This document shows positions 10,529 through 63,291 of a stretch of DNA of 64,000 nucleotides, in pieces. Each line of letters begins with the position of its first letter. Positions within the stretch are counted from its first letter, which is position 1. Location: positions 52,886,001-52,950,000 of the forward strand of contig NC_042999.1 of NCBI RefSeq assembly GCF_006345805.1. The letters run 5' to 3'. A program made the position numbers and the translations under genes. Origin of the DNA: Octopus sinensis. Taxonomy: Eukaryota. Below the pieces are notes generated by a model that saw only the letters and a program-made list of their open reading frames with translations, searched no databases and was not told the origin of the DNA.

Positions 10529-10785
10529 AAAGGCGACGAGCTGGCAGAATCGCTAGCACGCCGGTCGAAATGCGTAGCCGTATTTCGTCTGTCGCACATG
10601 TGTTCGTGGTAAAAATTGCTGTTTCTTTGTGTTAATATTGTTAATATCTGCTGTTTCTAATAACTGTTGTTTCTTGTTAAATTGTTCGGGGTCGATTAAG
10701 TACCAGTTACGCATTGGTTAATCCGTTTGTCTGTCCTTGTTTGTCTCAGCTGTGTTTAGCCACTTGTGGGTAATAAAGAAACAAG
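10529..10785 (+). mobile_element. Nin/Deu-domain SINE copy, internally interrupted
   Basis: Same head and tail (GCCACTTGTGGGTAATAAAGAAA) as 3942-4175. Confidence 0.8.
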
Positions 10786-10960
10786 TATTCTTAGACGCGG
10801 AGGGCAGGTTGGTCGTCTTAGATGTCGATTGCAGTAATGGCTGTGCTCTCCGACTGATAACGTTATTCGCACCGTCCTTAACAGGATTTCTTCCGACGTC
10901 TAGAGGTTTTCCTGGGAACTTCTCCACCTTTACTTTTAGTAGTGGATTGGAACAATATTA
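10786..10960 (+). mobile_element. L1/Tx1-like LINE endonuclease fragment
   Basis: LDAEGRLVVLDV...ALRLITLFAP resembles the DxxGRxxxxxx..NxYAP stretch of the Tx1 APE domain. Confidence 0.6.
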
Positions 10961-21975: not shown

Positions 21976-22139
21976 AAAGAACGAAAGAATATATAATATA
22001 TATATATATATATTGCTTCGTTGTTTTATTGTTTTATCAGTTTCAGCTCAAAGCTGCGGCCATGCTGGGGCACCGCCGTTTTTCTACACTGTTATTATTG
22101 AGAACATCTTCTGATAAGTAGCATTTGGTGAGTAACAGT

Positions 22140-22780
22140 GTTTGATGTCCGTGCCCTTTGAGTTATTGAGCAAGGTGACCCACCTAGTCAACACCTGGCC
22201 TTGGCGATGGCTATCCTTGAAAGGGAGGGTGGAGGTGGCCAATGTGTTTATCGCATCGGTCATCGTTTACCACCGAACCGTCGTTCCTTGCCATGATTTG
22301 TGGTTAATCAAACTGGAAAGGCAGCTCTTTCGCTTCTTGTGGAGGAACTCGAAACCGCTTATTAAACGCTCTATTTGCAGACAAAAACCGTTAAAGGGTT
22401 GACTAGGGATGCCTTGGCTGTTGATGCGCAGACATGCGCTGAGGTTGAGGCATCAGAGGCTCTACCTGGTTTGTGAACGGGTGTGATCTCCGCTTGCGAA
22501 ACAAATGTTTCCCAGGTTTAATAGTTTTAGTGGACGGGAAACTCGGTTCTATCGTAGATCGATTCTGAGTACATTGTTTATGGAGTGCCGTAAGGGTCTC
22601 CTGCTATTCCGTCGATCGTTAATGCCAGCGGTGGTAGTTCAGCCGCATCGTTCTATAGAGGGATGGTAGAGTCGGCATGTGACGATACTTTAAGGGAAAC
22701 CCTTGGTTTCGGTGATAATCAGTTGGCCAGTCTGTTCTAACGTACATTCGCGCCGAAGACCCTGGTTAACTTTAGATGAT
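22140..22780 (+). mobile_element. L1/Tx1-like LINE ORF2 fragment downstream of RT
   Basis: W..RWLSLKGRVEVANVFIAS...LERQLFRFLW...KG*LGMP is characteristic of L1/Tx1 ORF2. Confidence 0.85.
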
Positions 22781-22865
22781 CATATATATATATATATAAT
22801 ATATATATATATATTATATATATATTATATATATATTATATAATATATATATTATAATATATATA

Positions 22866-23184: not shown

Positions 23185-25199
23185 AGCAATAATAAATCTC
23201 TGAACGAGGTATAAACAGTAGTTGCAACACATCGTGAAGTATATTTGCCACTTGAATGTGGCTAACTCCTAAGGGTGGATGCTACTCTAGCTTCTCTTTT
23301 TTTATGAAGTATAAATTTTACTTATTTTTAAAAGTTCATAAAGGGTTCCAAACCTTCTAATTCCACGACCGGTGGCAGCTCGTCAAACTCGACTTCAACC
23401 CCCAGCGGGTCTATGAAAAGTTCATACATCTCTCTTAATTTCAAATATCTCTCTTTATCTATGACTCTTCCGTTAGTGTTTTCGGCTATTTTCCTGGCAG
23501 CATCTTTACTCTTATTACCGATTTAAATTTTACAATCGTTTCTCTATTTCTTTACTTTTGGAATATGTGACCAAATGCCACTTTTATCTCTTCCTTCCTT
23601 TTCACTTCTGCTTGCTTCGGGTCCCGTCCCGATCTGTTTAGGCGTGCAGAAACATCCCAACCAATTTTATGAACGCTTCCTTTTTATCCCTGTTGTAATG
23701 CTGTTTTTTCCTGTGTGCCTTCTTTCACCACTGCTTCTGTTGGTGCTTCACGCCTATCTCTCTTTTCTTCTATCACAATCTACTTTAGCCTTTTTTGACT
23801 ACCTGGGGGAGAATTCACTTGTACCTTTCTCTTCCTCGTGTTTACTACTGTGAAGGGTTCCTCCACTCCGTGTGTCTCTTTCGTTGGTACTACCTCTTCG
23901 GTATTTTTCTTCATTTTTCTTCTCCTCTTCGTTTTCCTTCTCGGGACATCTTGCTTTTTTTCCGCCTAGGAAACATGTTGGTGGTCTTCCTTTCGACTAT
24001 TATTCGAAGTCTACCGTCTTCCGGGAGTATTATTTCCTCCGTTATACTATGCAAGTCTTTCAAAGATACCTGCATAGTCACTTCAAGGCTGTATACCCAC
24101 AAATTGGACTTTAGGGTCCTCGTCATCTTGAGGATCTCTACTCCATCCTTCATATCGTGCATTATATCTGCTACCAGCCATTCTTCCTCGATTTCGGGGG
24201 CTATTCTTCCAACTTACACTCTGGCTGCGCATTTGCCACAGTACGTCGGAAGTAGTATCCATTTCGTTGTCCGAAACGGCCGCGTGGAGTGGTTCATTGC
24301 ATCTTCTTCGTTGCTAAACCTTACTTCCATTAAGCCATACTTCTTTTCACGTGTATAGAACGTGGTAAAATTTTTCACATTTTCGAGGCATTCCTCTATT
24401 TCTTCTGTTGGGGCTACCTCTATCTTGTTCGAGGACGTAGATAACGTTCTGTATACTACCGTCCTTTTTTCTATGCTTTTCATCAGTTCTTCGGGGTGGG
24501 GGGGGGTTATCAGCTTTGGACTAGTTGCTTACTCTTTCACAAATTTTCTTCCTTCCTTCTTCTTTCTTTTGTCCGTTTCTATTTCTTTCAATTCCAGGGT
24601 GTTGGTATTTATTCCTTGTGTCATTGCCGCTGCGTGACTTTGTCTATTCTCCATCTTTCTTCAATCCTCCCGTAGACAGGGATTATACAGGTGCAAACGA
24701 AGCAGTGATTGAAATTCAATAATCTACACAATCCAACGAATCTTGGTTCTCAGGTGCGGGAAGCCTATAACAAAGATACAATATCAGTGAGTAACAATTT
24801 GAACACACATCGAAGAAATCACAACCTACCCCCGTAGGTGACAATCGCGAGTAGTCGATGAAAAGCAGGCCTCCCTTTGCAAATATATATCCTTTTTCTG
24901 GTGAAAAAAAGTCACTGATATCGAAAAAGTGTAAACAATAAATAATAAATCTCTGAGCGAGTTATAAACAGTAGCTGCAATACATCGTGAAGTATAATTG
25001 CCTCTTAAATATGGCTAAACCGAAGGATGGATGCTACTGTAGCTTGTAGTCCCAGGAGGACACCTCCTCCAGCTGGGTTTTGGCACACTTACTGTGTGTC
25101 AATAGCCAGCTGGAAGGAGGTGTCCTCCTGGGGCTACAAGCTACAGTGGCATCCACCCTTAGGGATTAGCCACAAAATTATGTTCCAAATATACTTCAC

Positions 25200-25200
<1 letters not shown>
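23185..25200 (-). mobile_element. Non-autonomous element with one Gag/ORF1-like ORF, direct terminal repeats and an inverted tail
   Basis: Repeat 23185-23293 recurs at 24936-25088, followed by an inverted copy at 25093-25200; (TA)n at both ends. Confidence 0.75.
23327..24680 (-). pseudogene. Disrupted Gag/ORF1-like protein (RRM-like region, degenerate zinc knuckle, charged linker)
   Basis: ORFs 24214-24483 and 23911-24162 join across a stop: EVRFSNEEDA..WILLPTYCGKCAARV..LRIIVE/GRPPTCF; homologous to 54653-56020. Confidence 0.75.
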
Positions 25201-25259
<59 letters not shown>

Positions 25260-36789: not shown

Positions 36790-36824
<35 letters not shown>

Positions 36825-36827
<3 letters not shown>

Positions 36828-39613
36828 ATTTCAACAATTGAGGGTAAAATTAATTAATTAATCAATTTCACCAAGTATTCAGTATGCAAAGGGACCATTT
36901 AAGGCGAATTCAAATTATTACATTATATAAAAGGGCTTAGTAAAATAAATTACTTTGCCGCATACTGAACTCATTAGAAATAGCAGCTAAAAAAACTTCT
37001 TTAAAACTATTTCTAATACTTAAAGAAAACCTCTCTCATATAGTGTTTGCTCAATTCAACTCACGAAAGTATGAGGGTAGAGACATTAAAAAATCAAATG
37101 CAAAGGTTTTGAGAACGTACGTTTCAAGATTAGTCAAACTCGACACTTCTATCATCAGCTCAGAACTCCCTGGTTTGGATTTGAAAACACTGAAAGTGGG
37201 AGCATACCCTTCGGCTTCTTATCGCTTCTGAAGATCCGCTCGAAACTAACAGTGCCAGCAAACTCCAATATGCAAGCGAAGAATTTCTGCTCTCCCCTTT
37301 CCACCAGCGTGGCTTAAAATCAGTAAACACTATGCTTTTTTCGGTAAAATCCGGGGCATTAAATAGAGAGAGATGAATTATAATTTCAACAATTGAGGGT
37401 AAAATTAATTAATTAACAATTTCACCAAGTATTCAGTATGCAAAGGGACCATTTAAGGCGAATTCAAATTATTACATTATTAAAAGGGCTTAGTAAAATA
37501 AATTACTTTGCCGCATACTGAACTCATTAGAAATAGCAGCTAAAAAAACTTTTTTAAAACTATTTCTAATACTTAAAGAAAACCTCTCTCATATAGTGTT
37601 TGCTCAATTCAACTCACGAAAGTATGGGGGTAGAGACATTAAAAAATCAAATGCAAAGGTTATTTGAGAACGTACGTTGCAAGATTAGTCAAACTCGACA
37701 CTTCTATCACCAGCTCAGAACTCCCTGGTTTGGATTTGAAAAACTGAAAGTGGGAGCATACCCTTTCGGCTTCTTATCGCTTCTGAAGATCCGCTCGAAA
37801 CTAACAGTGCCAGCAAACTCCAATATGCAAGCGAAGAATTTCTGCTCTCCCCTTTCACCAGCGTGGCTTAAAATCAGTAAACACTATGCTTTTTTCGGTA
37901 AAACCGGGGCATTAAATAGAGAGAGATGAATTATAATTTCAACAATTGAGGGTAAAATTATTAATTAATCAATTTCACCAAGTATTCAGTATGCAAAGGG
38001 ACCATTTAAGGCGAATTCAAATGATTACATTATATAAAAGGGCTTAGTAAAATAAATTACTTTGCCGCATACTGAACTCATTAGAAATAGCAGCTAAAAA
38101 AACTTCTTTAAAACTATTTCTAATACTTAAAGAAAACCTCTCTCATATAGTGTTTGCTCAATTCAACTCACGAAAGTATGGGGGTAGAGACATTAAAAAA
38201 TCAAATGCAAAGGTTATTTGAGAACGTACGTTTCAAGATTAGTCAACTCGACACTTCTATCATCAGCTCAGAACTCCCTGGTTTGGATTTGAAAACACTG
38301 AAAGTGGGAGCATACCCTTTCGGCTTCTTATCGCTTCTGAAGATCCGCTCGAAACTAACAGTGCCAGCAAACTCCAATATGCAAGCGAAGAATTTCTCTG
38401 CTCTCCCCTTTCCACCAGCGTGGGTTAAAATCAGTAAACCACTATGCATTTTTCGGTAAAATCCGGGGCATTAAATAGAGAAGATGAATTATAATTTCAC
38501 AAATTGAGGGTAAAATTAATTAATTAATCAATTTCACCAACTGAATACTTGGTGAAATTGATTAATTAATTAATTTTACCCTCAATTGTTGAAATTATAA
38601 TTCATCTCTCTCTATTTAATGCCCCGGATTTTACCGAAAAAAGCATAGTGTTTACTGATTTTAAGCCACGCTGGTGGAAAGGGGAGAGCAGAAATTCTTC
38701 GCTTGCATATTGGAGTTTGCTGGCACTGTTAGTTTCGAGCGGATCTTCAGAAGCGATAAGAAGCCGAAAGGGTATGCTCCCACTTTCAGTGTTTTCAAAT
38801 CCAAACCAGGGAGTTCTGAGCTGATGATAGAAGTGTCGAGTTTGACTAATCTTGAAACGTACGTTCTCAAATAACCTTTGCATTTGATTTTTTAATGTCT
38901 CTACCCCCATACTTTCGTGAGTTGAATTGAGCAAACACTATATGAGAGAGGTTTTCTTTAAGTATTAGAAATAGTTTTAAAAAAGTTTTTTTAGCTGCTA
39001 TTTCTAATGAGTTCAGTATGCGGCAAAGTAATTTATTTTACTAAGCCCTTTTATATAATGTAATAATTTGAATTCGCCTTAAATGGTCCCTTTGCATACT
39101 GAATACTTGGTGAAATTGATTAATTAATTAATTTTACCCTCAATTGTTGAAATTATAATTCATCTCTCTCTATTTAATGCCCCGGATTTTACCGAAAAAA
39201 GCATAGTGTTTACTGATTTTAAGCCACGCTGGTGGAAAGGGGAGAGCAGAAATTCTTCGCTTGCATATTGGAGTTTGCTGGCACTGTTAGTTTCGAGCGG
39301 ATCTTCAGAAGCGATAAGAAGCCGAAAGGGTATGCTCCCACTTTCAGTGTTTTCAAATCCAAACAGGAGTTCTGAGCTGATGATAGAAGTGTCGAGTTTG
39401 ACTAATCTTGAAACGTACGTTCTCAAATAACTTTGCATTTGATTTTTTAATGTCTCTACCCCCATACTTTCGTGAGTTGAATTGAGCAAACACTATATGA
39501 GAGAGGTTTTCTTTAAGTATTAGAAATAGTTTTAAAAAAGTTTTTTTAGCTGCTATTTCTAATGAGTTCAGTATGCGCAAAGTAATTTATTTTACTAAGC
39601 CCTTTTATATAAT
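36825..39613. repeat. ~555-bp tandem array: 3 full + 1 partial forward units, then about 2 inverted units
   Basis: Unit starts ATAATTTCA at 36825, 37380, 37933 and 38491; orientation switches at 38540/38541; (TA)n at both ends. Confidence 0.97.
38817..38869 (+). ncRNA. Candidate type I hammerhead ribozyme in the array unit
   Basis: TGAG-CTGATGA-[imperfect stem II]-GAAAC-GTAC-GTT-CTCA; also 39373-39425 (+), 37110-37162 (-), 38219-38270 (-). Confidence 0.6.
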
Positions 39614-46095: not shown

Positions 46096-47084
46096 TATAT
46101 ATATATATGATATAGGAGGTATTGGTATCCAGAAGACACAAGACGGCAGGTAAGGCCATGAAACTGCTACGGAAGGACAGAAATAATATGAGTGATGAGT
46201 CTAATGCGGGTCATGTGTATGTTAAATAAAATGAGATAACAGAGTCAACACTGTGTAGAATTATTAGGACATTTATAAAGAGAAGGGTAGTTTTACAACT
46301 CCTTTTCCAAAATAACTTCTCATACTGAACTCTATTATTCCCCTCTATTTAACTTTCTCACATCGTCTCTGATCAAGGAATATCCCTATTATCCCAGAAA
46401 AAGCTGTAAGACTACTTTTCTCTATGTAAATGTCCCAATTTTTACATTATATTTATATTTATGTGACATTAGTATATGTTCATCAAATTTAAAAAGATGT
46501 ACCTTTGGATGTTATATGTAGGCTTATCAATTTATTTTAGCAAATTCTCCTAAAATGAATTGGTAAGTCCACATATAACATCCACTTGTACATTTTTTCT
46601 TTTTTTGTCATGAAAATATACACATAACACATAAATGTAAATTTAATGTACAAATTTGTAATTTAATTATAGAGTATTAATTGAAACCGCTGTAAGAAGG
46701 AAAGACGACCAATTTGTTGTGAATAAACAATGAACTTCCTAACCTCCATTTTCTTTTCTTCTCTTAACAAGTGCGGCGTCCTGTACTGGTCAGTGCTACT
46801 TACGTTTATAGCACTGTCCAGTATAGGACGCCACACCTGGCTGGTAATTATATGTTACGATTCCGTATTACTGCTGTTTATATCTCGCTCAGAGATTTAA
46901 TACAGTATATATATATATATTTCTCTCCTTGATTCTCTCCTTGTTTTTTTTTTCTGTGTCTCTTTCTGTAGAAGAGCGTAGGCTCGAAACGTAAAATACT
47001 TTTTCTATTCCTGAGCGTTATATTAATGCATCTGTTTGTTTTGTACATCACATGTCTTCGTCTATTGTTTGTTTCGTAAATTCT

Positions 47085-47130
<46 letters not shown>

Positions 47131-48289
47131 ATATTTATATGCGTGCACACAGACACACATAATGACACATGTTAGTTGAAGGTTATCATCGTTTATATGG
47201 ACAATTTATAAGCAGTTACAGCAATTTTATGCCTCCGACGTAAACCCGAACATATAATATTCGGAAATCGCGAAATATCTGAAATAATAGAATTTAAAGT
47301 AAAACATGAGAAGCTTTTTTAATAATTCATTAAAATATTGTTGCTTCAATGAGCAGGTACAGAGCTATGATAGATAGCATTGCTAGCGCTTTAACATTGT
47401 TCAAGAAATCCATTTAATTACGCAATGTGTCGACTAAATTCCCAATTATCCAATTAGCAAGAAATCAATAGTATAAACTACTAAAATAATGAGTTAAATT
47501 AATTAAAACCAACAACCCACTCCATATATATATATACACATATATACACACACGTATACACAGACACATGTATGTGTGTGTGTGTGTGCGTGTGTGAATC
47601 TCTCACTAAATTGTGCGTTTCTTGTTGACTAACACGACTTCAGAGGTCAAAGCCATTTTACAACAATTATAAAAATGATGTTAAAAAGAAAAAGAAATAA
47701 AATTCAGGAAGAAGAAAACGAAATACATCAATTTTAACATGGCGACCTAATGTTTAACGGATATCATCTTAATAAAGGGGAGTCCGCTATCGATTGTTCT
47801 ATAGGATAAAAGTGAGGGAAACGAAGGGAGAGAACAGGAAGAGGGAGGCGAAACATAAAAGGATGAGGGGAGAGAGAAAGAAAACGAGGAAGAAATAAAG
47901 AAAAAAATAACGTGAGATCGTCTTTATATTTATTGAGGTCTGTTAAACTTAGCAAAATACGGAAACAGCCACGTGTTTATATATAAATATTCATAACCAC
48001 GCGCAGACACAGACACACACGCAATCACGTACGCACGCACACATACACACACACACACACACTTATTGAAATTTATGTCAAGTCATTCTTGCTTTATGCA
48101 AATTCTCCCTATGTATCATATATCCAGTATGACACGTTGCTTCTACAGTCTTCGTTGGAAGTGTTCGTTTATTGACGAAAGCATTTAAATGTATTTAAAT
48201 GTATCACTAAAATGGTGTGATCATTATAAACAGATTACCCAGCGATGTGATCACAGAAGTGCACACAAGCATGTATTCATATACATATC

Positions 48290-48672
48290 TCTTTTACTCT
48301 TTTACATGTTTCAGTCATTTGACTGTGGCCATGCTGGAGCACCGCCTTTAATCGAGCAAATCGACCCCGGGACTTACTCTTTGTAAGCCCAGTACTTATT
48401 CTATCGGTCTCTTTTGCCGAGCCGCTAAGTGACGGAGACGTAAACACACCAGCATCGGTTGTCAAGCAATGCTAGGGGGACAAACACAGACATACAAACA
48501 CATATACATATATACACATATATACGCCAGGCTTCTTTCAGTTTCCGTCTACCAAATTCACTCACAAGGCATTGGTCGGCCCGGGGCTATAGCAGAAGAC
48601 ACTTGGCCAAGATGCCACGCAGTGGGACTGAACCCGGACCCATGTGGCTGGTTAGCAAGCTACTTACCACAT
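48290..48672 (-). mobile_element. CORE-like tRNA SINE
   Basis: Reverse complement of 49024-49420. Confidence 0.9.
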
Positions 48673-49023
48673 AGCGAGGATTCATGAGAATCTAGGCGCA
48701 TCAAGAGGCAGGACATCAGAAATGGCCACGGAGGGTAACATAGACCCCACTGTGAAGCAAACAATATTGAACATATTATGTGCTGGTAGGATACGGTATA
48801 TATGCAAGCACTATGCTTGACCGCTAAATCTGCAGGATTTTTTTTTGTTCTCTCTCTGTTTTGTTTTGTTTTGTTTGTTCGCATTGCTTTCTATTCAAGA
48901 GCGTAGGGTCGAAACGTAAAACATTTTTTCCTTTTTCATTTTCACGATCGTCAAACATGCTTGCTGTTCATACACTTGTCTTCGTTTTTCTTTTTCAATA
49001 AATTTAATATATTTATGTATATC

Positions 49024-49180
49024 AGGAGTGGCTGTGTGGTAAGTAGCTTGCTAACCAACCACATGGTTCCGGGTTCAGTCCCACTGCGTGGCATCTTGGG
49101 CAAGTGTCTTCTGCTATAGCCCCGGGCCGACCAATGCCTTGTGAGTGGATTTGGTAGACGGAAACTGAAAGAAGCCTGTC

Positions 49181-49214
<34 letters not shown>

Positions 49215-49425
49215 TTGTGTGTCTGTGTTTGTCCCCTTAGCATTGCTTGACAACCGATGCTGGTATGTTTACGTCCCCGTCACTTAGCGGTTCGGCAAAA
49301 CAGACCGATAGAATAAGTACTGGGCTTACAAAGAATATGTCCCGGGGTCGATTTGCTCGACTAAAGGCGGTGCTCCAGCATGGCCGCAGTCAAATGACTG
49401 AAACAAGTAAAAGAGTAAAAGAGTA
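49024..49425 (+). mobile_element. CORE-like tRNA SINE, full length with AAAAGAGT tail repeats
   Basis: Matches 21626-21975; partial copies at 61940-62087 (-), 63640-63805 (+) and 59945-60065 (-). Confidence 0.92.
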
Positions 49426-50117: not shown

Positions 50118-50990
50118 GTATATATACATATATAAATAAGTATTAAACAGCCGGTTGTCAAGCGATGTTGGGGGAGGGGGGCAAACACAACACACAAACA
50201 TACACATATATATATACATATATATGACGGGTTTCTTTCAGTTTCCGTCTACTTTGGTCGGCCCGAGGCTATAGCAGTAGACACTTGCCCAAGGTGCCAC
50301 GCAGTGTGACTGAACCCGGAACCATGTGGTTCATATGCAAGCTACTTACCACACAGCCACTCTTACGCCTATACATATATATATACTTGCCCAAGGTGCC
50401 ACGCAGTGTGACTGAACCCGGAACCATGTGGTTCATATGCAAGCTACTTACCACACAGCCACTCCTACTCCTATACATATATATATATATATATAGCCAC
50501 TCCTACGCCTATACATATATATATATATATATATATCTATATATATATATGTATAGGCGTAGGAGTGGCTGTGTGGTAAGTAGCTTGCATATGAACCACA
50601 TGGTTCCGGGTCATATATATATATATGTATAGGCGTAGGAGTGGCTGTGTGGTAAGTAGCTTGCATATGAACCACATGGTTCCGGGTTCAGTCACACTGC
50701 GTGGCACCTTGGGCAAGTGTCTTCTGCTATAGCCTCGGGCCGACCAAAGTAGACGGAAACTGAAAGAAACCCGTCATATATATGTATATATATATGTGTA
50801 TGTTTGTGTGTTGTGTTTGCCCCCCCCCCTCCCCCAACATCGCTTGACAGCCGATGCTAGTGTGTTTACGTCCCCGTAACTTAGAGGTTCGGCAAAAGAG
50901 ACTGATAGAATAAGTCCTGGGGTCGATTTCCTCGACTAAAGGCGTTGCTCCAGCATGGCCACAGTCAAATGACTGAAACAAGTAAATGAA
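49995..50990. repeat. Palindromic cluster of CORE-like SINE copies
   Basis: Minus copies 50150-50515 face plus copies 50550-50990, and the heads are reiterated. Confidence 0.9.
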
Positions 50991-54192: not shown

Positions 54193-54240
<48 letters not shown>

Positions 54241-54652
54241 GTTGTATACTGTCAACTCAACGTGACAGTCCCGTAAGGGAATTGCACCACCACCATTCAG
54301 CCCTAGGAAACATCGACGTTTTCTGTCGGCTTTGACACATTTTCTGTGTTCTTATATTTGCAAGGGGGGGGGGGGGCAATCACCCCCGCCAGCTGGGACT
54401 AGCACCTGAAGACATATGTTTCTGAGTGTATTGCTCGTCATCACTCCAGGGTGCAAGTCTCGCTCGCTGGAATCTTTATTAAAGGCACAATTGCCTGAAT
54501 GAACAGGGGGCATAACAATACAAAACAAGACATGGGGTACATGTAACAAAAATACAGAAAAGATGATATGAAATGAAATATTAACAATGAATTAAATGAA
54601 ATGGCTTACGAGCCCCCCAAAGCTCGCAGTTTCATTTACAATTACAGTTATT

Positions 54653-56020
54653 CTATCTGGGGTGTTCGTCACTAATATAAACGAGTAATTCATCCTGCTC
54701 TATAACGCCGGGTAAACTGTCATATCGAACGTAGTGCGCAATGCACACAGCTGTATTTGAAAACAAATTTATTAATTTATTTACCGTCTCTTTTTCCACT
54801 ATTACAGCCTTTATTTGGTTATCGTATATCCTCGGTTTCAATTTCACTCTCGTTAGATATTTTATTATCGCTAATTTTTTCTCAATTTTTTATCTTTTCG
54901 GTACAACTCTAAGATTTCTTCCTTTGGGTCTTCCTCATTCCTTCCATGTTTTCAGACATTCCTCCACTTTTCTGATCCATTTTTCCGTTTCCTCCCACGT
55001 TCGACCTTCACTCACTTCAGTTGTTTTATTTTTCCATTCGTGTGTTCGATCTTCTGTCTCGACGGCAGACTTTTTTGTTTGTTTTTTCTTTTTTTGGTCT
55101 TTGGGTGGTTATTTCACCCCTGTTCGCTTTCTATCCTCTTTTTATTCTATTCTCTCCTTTTCTTTCTCCTTCTCTAGCTCGTCGCAACTTTCCATATTAT
55201 CTGTTGTCATGATCTCTTCTCCCGCTAGTAGTTCTACATTCTCTCTTTCTAACTCCCCATGTCAAAGCTTTTATTCCTTCCACCAGGGTTATCGTATTCT
55301 CTTGTTTTTTTGAGGACACACATCCTTCATGCGCCCTCTGCTCTTACATTTATAACATACTGGAGGTCTCTCATCCACCACGATTCTCAGTCGTGTCTCT
55401 ACGGGGAACACCAACTCCTAGGAGATGTTGTACAAATCTGGCATGGTTATGTGGATTAAGGCTTCCACCGCATAACCCCACCAGTTTATTTCATTCGACC
55501 TTTCCACCTTGAATATATCCACGTCCTCCTTGCAGTTGTAAATTATTGCAGCTACTATACTTTCGGTATCAAGTCCCGATGGAATTTTGCTTATCCGCAC
55601 CCTCGCCGCACTTCTACCGCAATAAGTAGGAAGTAATACCCATTTATCTGATCTCAACGCTGTCGTTGCATTCCTTTTTTGCTTCATCTTCATTTTCGAA
55701 GCGAACTTCTACTGTTGCGCATTTTCTACCTCTATTGTAGATGGTAGTTCTTCCTTTTATTCCTTGTAAACATTTTTCAATCTCTTCTACTTCTGCCACT
55801 TTTATTCTTTTTGAGACCACACTCCATGTTCAGTATGTTATCGTTTTTCTCTTTGCTTTTTTAACTTCTGGTGTTGTAATCCTCAGACAGTCTCCTTCCT
55901 TTTTGAAGCTGCCATAGTATTTCCTCGGGTTTTCCTTCTCAATAATTTCTTCTTTTAACTGTAATGCGTCAGCAGACAGGCTTTTGCCTGCTGCTTTCGC
56001 ATAAGTCTGGGCTTACATAC
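54653..56020 (-). pseudogene. Disrupted Gag/ORF1-like protein with CCHC knuckle
   Basis: TYAKAA...VEVRFENEDEA / WVLLPTYCGRSAARVRISKIP...LRIVVDERPPVCYKCKSRGRMKDVC (Cx2Cx4[H>R]x4C). Confidence 0.8.
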
Positions 56021-56333
56021 CCAACAAAGAATTCAACGATTATAACGTTCAACACAAAGCAACAATTTTCAACAACAATAATCAACAAAATTCAACTCAC
56101 AACTGCAAATCTGAAAAACCGACACAAACACTTCCGCGTGACGTTATCATCTAGGGTAGGAAGTCTCGCTCGCAATGCCCTGAATGAAGAGGGGACATAA
56201 CAATACAATACAGCCTTTCTGTATTTTTGTTATATGTTATATGTACCCCATGTCTTGTATTGTATTGTTATGTCCTCTCTTCATTCAGGCCATTGTGCCT
56301 ATAATAAAGATTTCAGCGAGCGAGACTTGCACA

Positions 56334-56377
56334 CTGGACTGATGACGCGCAATGCACTCAGAAACATATGTCTTCAG
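56334..56377 (+). ncRNA. Type I hammerhead ribozyme motif
   Basis: CTGGA-CTGATGA-CGCGCAATGCACTCA-GAAAC-ATAT-GTC-TTCAG: intact core, GUC site, palindromic stem III; the mirror copy 54405-54450 (-) has GTGATGA. Confidence 0.72.
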
Positions 56378-56623
56378 GTGCTAGTCCCAGCTGGCGGGTG
56401 TGATTGCCTCCCCTTTGCAAATATAAGGACACAGAAAATGTCTCAAAGCCGACAGGAAACGTCGATGTTTCCTAGGGTTAAATGGCGGTGGTGTAATTCC
56501 TTTATGGGACTGTCACGTTGAGTTGACAGTATATAACCACTATATCGCTCCACTACCGCTCATGTCTCTCTGAGACATTCAGAAATTCAATGTTTCTAAT
56601 ATATATATATATATATTATATAT

Positions 56624-62956: not shown

Positions 62957-63022
<66 letters not shown>

Positions 63023-63027
<5 letters not shown>

Positions 63028-63291
63028 CGTATATTTGCCATTGAAATATGGCTAGCCACTAAGGGTGGATGCTACTGTAGCTTGTAGCCGCAGGAGGCCA
63101 CCGCCTCCAGCTGGCTATAGACACAGATAGGGCACAGAAAGTGTGTCTATAGCCAGCTGGAGGTGGTGGCCTCCTGGGGCTACAAACTACAGTAGCATCC
63201 ACCTTTAGGAGTTAGCCATATTTCAATGGCAAATATACGTCACGATGTGTTTAGCTAGTGTTTATAACTCGGTCCGAGATTTATTATTGCT
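63023..63291. repeat. Solo hairpin copy of the terminal repeat of element 23185-25200
   Basis: Arms about 63024-63124 and 63142-63243, plus an extension; corresponds to the reverse complement of 24936-25200. Confidence 0.9.

Follow-up and report, generated by a model that had tools for sequence, protein, structure and literature searches.

The locus at positions 23,185 to 25,200 of a 64,000-nucleotide stretch of the Octopus sinensis genome (NCBI RefSeq assembly GCF_006345805.1, contig NC_042999.1, positions 52,886,001 to 52,950,000, forward strand; hereafter the window, in whose coordinates positions are given) raises a key question: is the single decayed open reading frame (ORF) that lies there between repeats one mobile element with its own termini, as the first-pass annotation had it, or did its parts arrive separately? 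We hold with considerable confidence that the stretch is an L1/Tx1-type long interspersed nuclear element (LINE) with only its first reading frame, ORF1, at a fixed site in a separate hammerhead ribozyme repeat, that it was likely placed there through target-primed reverse transcription (TPRT) by the enzyme of a full LINE, and that the site is a predicted transcription start. Such ORF1-only inserts are called half-LINEs below, the one in question element A (family A) and the repeat around it host repeat A; a sister composite in the same window holds a family B half-LINE in host repeat B. The features are as follows.

23185..23293, minus strand: 3' terminal piece of host repeat A (monomer nt ~164-272), continued by (TA)n; 84% identity to a monomer of an empty array, TA flank.
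23283..23297, no strand: junction of a ~449-nt deletion; a single clean gap against copy L009, absent from 29 other A loci.
23328..24654, minus strand: decayed ORF1 of the family A half-LINE, with stops and a frameshift near 24005; its parts are two predicted RRMs, a CCHC knuckle, a charged linker and a short C-terminal domain (model made from an intact B copy).
24655..24839, minus strand: half-LINE 5' untranslated region (UTR), common to A copies from the junction on.
24840..24852, minus strand: target-site duplication, left copy, with the sequence ACTCGCGATTGTC (variant form of ACCGGTGATTGTC).
24853..25096, minus strand: upstream part of host repeat A (monomer nt ~113-352), with the predicted promoter and start site.
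25094..25206, plus strand: inverted arm of host repeat A (Penelope-type 5' inversion), then (TA)n.
54233..56545, minus strand: sister composite, a family B half-LINE in host repeat B; ORF 56018-54653, tail at ~54478.

To place these features, copies were collected genome-wide (loci carry the prefix L). The body of element A gave 974 candidates and family B 332; in each case 40 were scored and the best 30 loci studied. The ORFs of the two window elements are collinear, as had been proposed: all five peptide pairs cited earlier occur in their minus-strand translations (tblastx E 4.7e-42), and the window protein aligns with an intact B copy at 38% over 212 aa (E 1e-50). Both ORFs are broken, that of A (24654-23328) by stops and a frameshift. 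Their repeats are indeed barely alignable, with no blastn match between the two; the whole monomers of A and B share 70% identity over 75 nt only, plus the hammerhead.

The shared order of repeat, ORF, repeat and inverted repeat, and the ORF that stops just before the terminal repeat, fared less evenly. The direct repeat of element A (23188-23293 / 24941-25045, 87.7% over 106 nt) and its hairpin (24987-25206, 79.9%) are real, and its stop codon does adjoin the repeat. This join recurs in 0 of the 29 other A loci: in other A copies about 400 nt separate the stop codon from the terminal repeat piece, and this interval includes the 3' UTR, a tail with GCCTATAATAAAGA at its end, a copy of the motif ACCGGTGATTGTC and a hammerhead. 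The ~449-nt deletion, whose gap position is unstable in comparisons with four copies other than L009, thus explains both the abutting stop codon and the absent ribozyme, since it took away the hammerhead, the right-hand target-site duplication and the insert 3' UTR with its AATAAAGA tail. Intact relatives carry the hammerhead that the first-pass annotation could not find here. The two window elements resemble each other in layout without being identical. In the sister the inverted arms are long (54233-54560 / 56216-56545), the direct piece is just 40 nt, and the arm at 56216-56545 holds the insert tail, the duplication and a hammerhead (56330-56380, plus strand).

What, then, are the "terminal repeats"? 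They are a separate hammerhead repeat of ~352 nt, a retrozyme of the type without long terminal repeats (non-LTR), and it is mostly empty. It occurs as tandem 352-nt units flanked by TA, with inverted arms, and one array has at least five monomers. A search with a 386-nt query returned 4694 candidates, of which 40 were scored; 29 of 32 distinct junctions with upstream repeat run straight into the hammerhead, two run into an insert and one is deleted, a contiguous host-repeat query being biased toward empty copies. The partial tandem, the inverted 5' copy and the microsatellite target, all traits of Penelope-type insertion, are found in this repeat.

The host units carry the core and the predicted fold of a type I hammerhead. 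From the 90 aligned rows, those of the 50-nt repeats in L097 (six), two of 49 nt and a false B row were excluded; the stems I and III are out of register between hosts in the alignment, so that the covariation tool was used for stem II only and the rest was scripted. In 82 motifs, stem I is paired at 88.8% against 69.7% with shuffled arms (shuffled maximum 75.6%), and loop 3 reads as a perfect palindrome in 55, with seven different palindromes. Stem II has 20 cells changed on both sides against 7.8 after shuffling. The core and the GUC site are conserved, with C at the cleavage position in 77 of the 82. The 352-nt monomer as a whole folds no better than its shuffles (z -1.1). Judged by these features the host repeat fits non-LTR retrozymes, with self-cleavage predicted. 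Related forms were also seen: a third hammerhead-like host in L220-L226 and L249-L252 has the core variants TTGATAA or CTGATAA, the host of the young LINE family described below has TTGACGA, and in L097:1861-2419 about twelve 50-nt tandem copies of the target motif and the hammerhead 5' half only lie upstream of the monomer.

The insert has boundaries of its own, namely a AATAAAGA tail and, on both sides, about 7-30 nt of duplicated host sequence. The tail was detected in 55 of the 60 A and B loci, and a downstream ORF2 or Penelope reverse transcriptase (RT) on the same strand in none of the 60 (flanks up to 1.5 kb). By automatic labels, the 30 A loci have behind the tail host A (19), the motif and another insert (4) or unrelated DNA (3), the tail being absent in 4; the 30 B loci give host B (16), host A (6), the motif and other sequence (5), unrelated DNA (2) and no tail (1). 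B-type ORFs in host A speak against the idea that each subfamily has its own repeat. With both ends scored at 33 of the 60 loci plus one chance tail match, the duplication at filled sites agrees with whichever host variant is present at the locus (by permutation, p 0.0012 for n=14 and p 0.0002 for n=16, the latter contrast being inflated by the host A loci L012 and L014, mislabelled as host B). Outside any host, L013 holds a 5'-truncated A copy with its own 15-nt duplication. Variable duplications and 5' truncation, both signs of TPRT, are thus present.

A third ORF1-only family, C (8640 candidates, 150 scored), has a tail of the same kind, and a hammerhead follows it in 1 of 19 readable tails (30 loci). 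This, together with the empty junctions, speaks against the reading of repeats and ORF as one element. Different inserts stand stacked head to tail, in the order C-B-D in L133 and B-A-short in L134, with a further tandem stack in L205. Short or internally deleted inserts (0.45-1.15 kb) occur at the same site in L134:6020-6520, L207:7261-8427 and L212:7818-8904. Tails of family C and related ones (L063-L090, L132, L139, L140) often run into TCAGT- or CAGT-like starts, perhaps the 5' ends of other elements or initiator sites. An apparent ORF2 behind the family C ORF1 of L126 was dismissed, being a separately inserted Penelope element; this element (L126:2576-5517), with a Penelope-like RT and GIY-YIG domain, belongs to an abundant family (18232 candidates). 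Contigs from four presumed-RNA runs cover parts of a B composite; the stretch concerned includes a short interspersed nuclear element (SINE), the contigs lack starts and ends, and they give no evidence either way.

The ORF itself is an L1/Tx1-type ORF1, with two predicted RRMs and a CCHC knuckle. The model of the intact B copy (pLDDT 87) matched RRM proteins over two domains (best Z 8.7, 81 residues, root-mean-square deviation 2.6), and the CCHC knuckle is present in the protein; Pfam on the window's broken frames gave nothing useful, two of the four frames being off-frame. Of 15 full-LINE stretches compared with the ORF, 14 contain a homologous ORF1 (E 1e-20 to 1e-39), and the fifteenth begins within ORF2. 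ORF2 of these LINEs has endonuclease, RT and zf-RVT domains (Pfam), and human L1 ORF2p is its closest solved structure (E 2e-63). The autonomous relatives thus have an ORF2 of the L1 group with apurinic endonuclease (APE) and RT, and a target-sequence preference is present. From their behaviour these LINEs probably belong to the Tx1 clade; the homology searches returned no named Tx1 reference. Named homologues of the ORF1 protein are octopus proteins, which does not fit descent from mammalian L1 as in HAL1 in the strict sense; the ORF1-only state arose independently of mammalian HAL1.

Another important question is whether full LINEs use the same site. The genome has 19 exact matches to tail plus motif, two of them with ORF2 sequence upstream. 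When one of these two was followed, 10 of the 30 hits were ORF2-bearing elements whose end abuts host A or B, and in 6 the third hammerhead-like repeat comes directly next. A young sister LINE family is 95-99% identical among the 25 loci taken; its 24 tails are followed by a host-A-related repeat (17), its own 5' end (5), position +1 of a U2 gene (1) or sequence elsewhere (1). In ten stretches, 5.5-kb elements with ORF1 and ORF2 lie between two TCATCGCTACCTGGTG copies in the same succession of repeat, coding part, repeat and inverted repeat, and so the layout, taken before as a single-ORF design, is not one. An unbroken single-frame ORF2 was present in none of these ten young-family stretches. 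A GTGGG-type LINE tail pattern had 0 matches at the host A site. In L283 an ORF2 tail abuts U2 +1, and in L268 and L278 ORF1 or ORF2 starts downstream of U2 genes.

The position of the site within the host points to a promoter. U2 genes have ATCAGT 57-61 nt before +1 in 19 of 20 cases, the twentieth being the gene with a LINE in front. The same motif lies 57-60 nt before ATCG at 19 of 32 host A junctions (background 5/604) and at 58-59 nt in all eight young-family elements with upstream host in view, and 6 of 11 host B cases have a similar motif 57-61 nt upstream of the duplication. In element A itself ATCAGT (24919-24914) and ATCG (24859-24856) are 60 nt apart. Upstream regions of 13 U6 genes, inspected by eye, have no ATCAGT at the U2 position. 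It is thus predicted from motif spacing that the insertion site, ~59 nt behind ATCAGT, is the transcription start of the host and that the inserts would use a promoter of the small nuclear RNA (snRNA) type.

The strongest competing explanation accepts the nesting and differs on this last point: the LINEs would simply recognise the sequence of a multicopy safe site and have their own internal promoter, the ATCAGT spacing being inherited or incidental. The target of the young family starts with ATCGCT like U2, so that its one U2 hit may be a look-alike; family C spreads mostly without the host, and half-LINE transcription is therefore possible without it; and the nick for A and B falls a few bases past the predicted +1. 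Set against this, three diverged host repeats have retained the spacing, as have U2 promoters, which are otherwise unlike them, and we regard this explanation as unlikely, though not negligible.

Several observations weigh against the nested reading with a host promoter, besides the inflated n=16 contrast above. Of the 32 host A junctions 11 lack the exact motif, as do 5 of the 11 in host B, and host copies are related, so that the independent evidence for the spacing comes from three host lineages plus U2. The A and B duplications begin several bases behind the predicted +1, not on it, and mimicry of the U2-start sequence (ATCGCT) could explain the shared target without promoter use. As to the hammerhead, Rfam yielded no match, with the window searched at the gathering score and seven loci by E-value, only microsatellite noise being returned; 67 of the 82 motifs have a C-A pair next to the core. 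The tails of A, B and C are nearer to other full LINEs (z up to 12) than to the hammerhead-targeting ones (z <=3.3), and the mobilising partner of A and B is therefore not fixed. Finally, a Penelope element sharing the host ends was not found among 30 copies of the one family tested, and the insert tail, on which re-copying would rest, occurs in just one of eight inverted arms, a minority.

On the nested reading, a composite would be built in steps. A Penelope-type enzyme would first paste the host, giving the partial tandem and the inversion; a LINE endonuclease would then nick near the host +1, where ORF2, acting in trans, would copy the half-LINE RNA, coated by the half-LINE's own ORF1 protein. 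Afterwards the upstream host piece would act as an snRNA-type promoter, and an occasional uncut read-through RNA, insert included, may be re-copied by the Penelope-type route. The fullest version, a three-layer parasite in which an old ORF1-only radiation borrows a Tx1-type ORF2, lands with it on the U2-like transcription start of hammerhead retrozymes, takes their snRNA-type promoter and also rides as a Penelope passenger, thus exploiting two unrelated reverse transcriptases, is put forward tentatively, with the odds somewhat against it.

Could the Penelope-type route account for everything? The composite would then be a single non-autonomous Penelope-like element that has pseudo-LTRs of its own, carries a captured ORF1 as cargo and is spread by the Penelope enzyme only, a design which we presume to be Terminon-like. 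The TA flanks, the partial tandem and the inverted arm do match Penelope insertions as these are described in part in PMC8557442. The window B arm, L246 and L252 carry insert sequence duplicated in inverted form (ORF2 sequence and host end in the latter two), and six 5'-truncated inserts (L010, L019, L022, L023, L024, L059) keep downstream host, with none upstream. Against such a design, empty hosts dominate and inserts swap hosts; the inserts have tails of their own and variable duplications, and one off-target copy carries a separate duplication; and the site is common to ORF2-bearing LINEs. Eight inverted hammerhead arms are present in the 60 A and B loci, with an empty junction in four of the arms and the insert tail in one (window B). 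Inverted arms with empty junctions (L002, L011, L016, L021, L334, L337) imply insertion after the host had landed; the window A arm has no junction, so that the insertion route is not readable from it. Thus, the Penelope enzyme as sole route is largely refuted and highly improbable; it can describe a secondary route, not the origin, and the evidence suggests that a few composites were copied whole in this way.

There remains the claim that the single-ORF state is old and selected, which our data bear out. In the RRM-CCHC part, substitutions found in at least three copies have a pN/pS (replacement to silent changes) of 0.25-0.36 in B and 0.37-0.50 in A, and private ones of about 0.7-1.4 (Fisher p 1.6e-9 for B, 0.005 for A); there is no such contrast in the B C-terminus (p 0.27) or in a UTR control (p 0.31). 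Since the shared substitutions avoid amino-acid replacement, ORF1 was functional in the source elements. Two trees place the ORF1s linked to ORF2 in one group (support 0.98 and 97), with families A, B, C and D outside it; the trees are rooted at midpoint, and the labels of one are automatic and in part wrong (L013, L065, L066). Exceptions are the ORF1-only L176, beside the ORF2 group, and L247, labelled ORF1-only, inside it. Several ORF1-only families exist, at about 38-64% identity. Close homologues are without ORF2, as the claim needs, and distant ones have it, so the refutation proposed in the first-pass annotation holds by half. Together with the lack of ORF2 at all 60 loci, these patterns point to a real ORF1-only design that was, on substitution evidence, under purifying selection. 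That A and B arose from full LINEs by chance internal deletion and were passively amplified, with no selected protein, would suit the broken state of nearly all copies (one intact ORF, of 460 aa, among 30 B loci; no full-length one among 30 A loci) and is the least probable explanation, given the avoidance of replacement in shared changes, the branching of several ORF1-only families apart from ORF2-linked ORF1s, and the lack, in the loci examined, of any full LINE with an ORF1 >80% identical to A or B. Readings as a DIRS/Ngaro or LTR element were also rejected, since the repeats occur on their own and neither a recombinase nor an integrase nor an RT is present.

Each of the three ingredients, namely ORF1-only LINEs, retrozymes and the targeting of transposons by Tx1 elements, is already known. 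In the passages available of PMC5786205 and PMC5753468, HAL1 (half-L1), HeT-A and Ag-Sponge are non-autonomous ORF1-only LINEs; the octopus elements resemble them in having the ORF1 protein only, a LINE-type 3' tail, no RT and the need for a partner in trans. They differ in forming an invertebrate L1/Tx1-type radiation of several families with a predicted RRM-RRM-CCHC ORF1, and in that A and B are site-specific for another mobile element. Target-specific Tx1-clade LINEs include Tx1L in Tx1D, Keno in U2, and Tx1-Mar with SINEU-3 in Mariner-N4, and use of flanking transcription has been proposed for them (PMC4494074, in part). The fixed site in another repeat, the target-site duplication, the tandem stacks and a non-autonomous rider on the same target are shared with the octopus system, whereas here the target is a hammerhead retroelement, the rider is protein-coding, the site is aligned with a predicted snRNA-type start and some composites seem to hitchhike.

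Metazoan non-LTR retrozymes are non-coding tandem units in the range 170-400 nt with one type I hammerhead per unit, and dependence on Penelope has been proposed for them (available passages of PMC7229834 and bioRxiv 10.64898/2026.07.22.740005). The octopus host repeat likewise consists of short non-coding tandem units with a type I hammerhead, whereas LINE inserts and an upstream motif like that of U2 are found in its units as well; neither Tx1 nor ORF1 nor octopus is mentioned in the preprint passages. Penelope-like elements have a partial tandem, an inverted 5'-truncated copy, a microsatellite bias and a hammerhead in the repeat (PMC8557442, in part). The host repeat shows the partial tandem, the inverted arm, TA flanks and the hammerhead; the composite, in contrast, carries no RT plus GIY-YIG ORF of an autonomous Penelope-like element, and its ORF is of LINE origin and arrived separately. 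The Octopus vulgaris repeat annotation, in the parts available of PMC13282606, lists L1-Tx1 and Penelope families and has no ribozyme, ORF1 or nesting terms. No paper combining the three known parts was found; the search covered sources other than Repbase, Dfam, subscription papers and supplements, which may hold these families.

The rest of the window is animal DNA with abundant TA microsatellites and contains related repeats. One further piece of host repeat A is present:

63017..63291, plus strand: fragment of host repeat A that includes an inverted arm and lacks an insert, between (TA)n runs.

A 60-nt remnant like the end of host repeat A adjoins a TA run at 46843-46902. At 22103-22790 (plus strand) lies a decayed C-terminal fragment of an L1/Tx1-type ORF2, 69% and 60% identical to a full element; as part of element A this fragment, at 22.1-22.8 kb, is ruled out by its opposite strand. 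An abundant SINE (4134, 12215, 27036, 57475) has a tail like those of full L1/Tx1-type LINEs and half-LINEs, a likeness that suggests a shared mobiliser. One full LINE family inserts within this abundant octopus SINE (L171, L178, L180, L184), and at 10529-10920 a SINE head holds the 5' end of the SINE-inserting LINE with an endonuclease scrap. AT-rich direct and inverted repeats at 36824-39613, 91-100% identical and between TA runs, are possibly a Penelope-type terminal repeat array, and a SINE-like repeat forms inverted pairs, 92-97% complementary, at 48289-49423 and 50172-50829.

For annotation these results carry a warning: cephalopod "single-ORF elements with terminal repeats" can be nested composites. 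The young full LINE family, with its sharply defined duplicated target of 16-18 nt, is useful for studies of endonuclease specificity. More generally, the octopus system offers a testable model of how non-autonomous elements gain both an enzyme and a promoter, and it points toward an snRNA-type promoter for animal retrozymes, whose transcription is left unexplained in the available passages.
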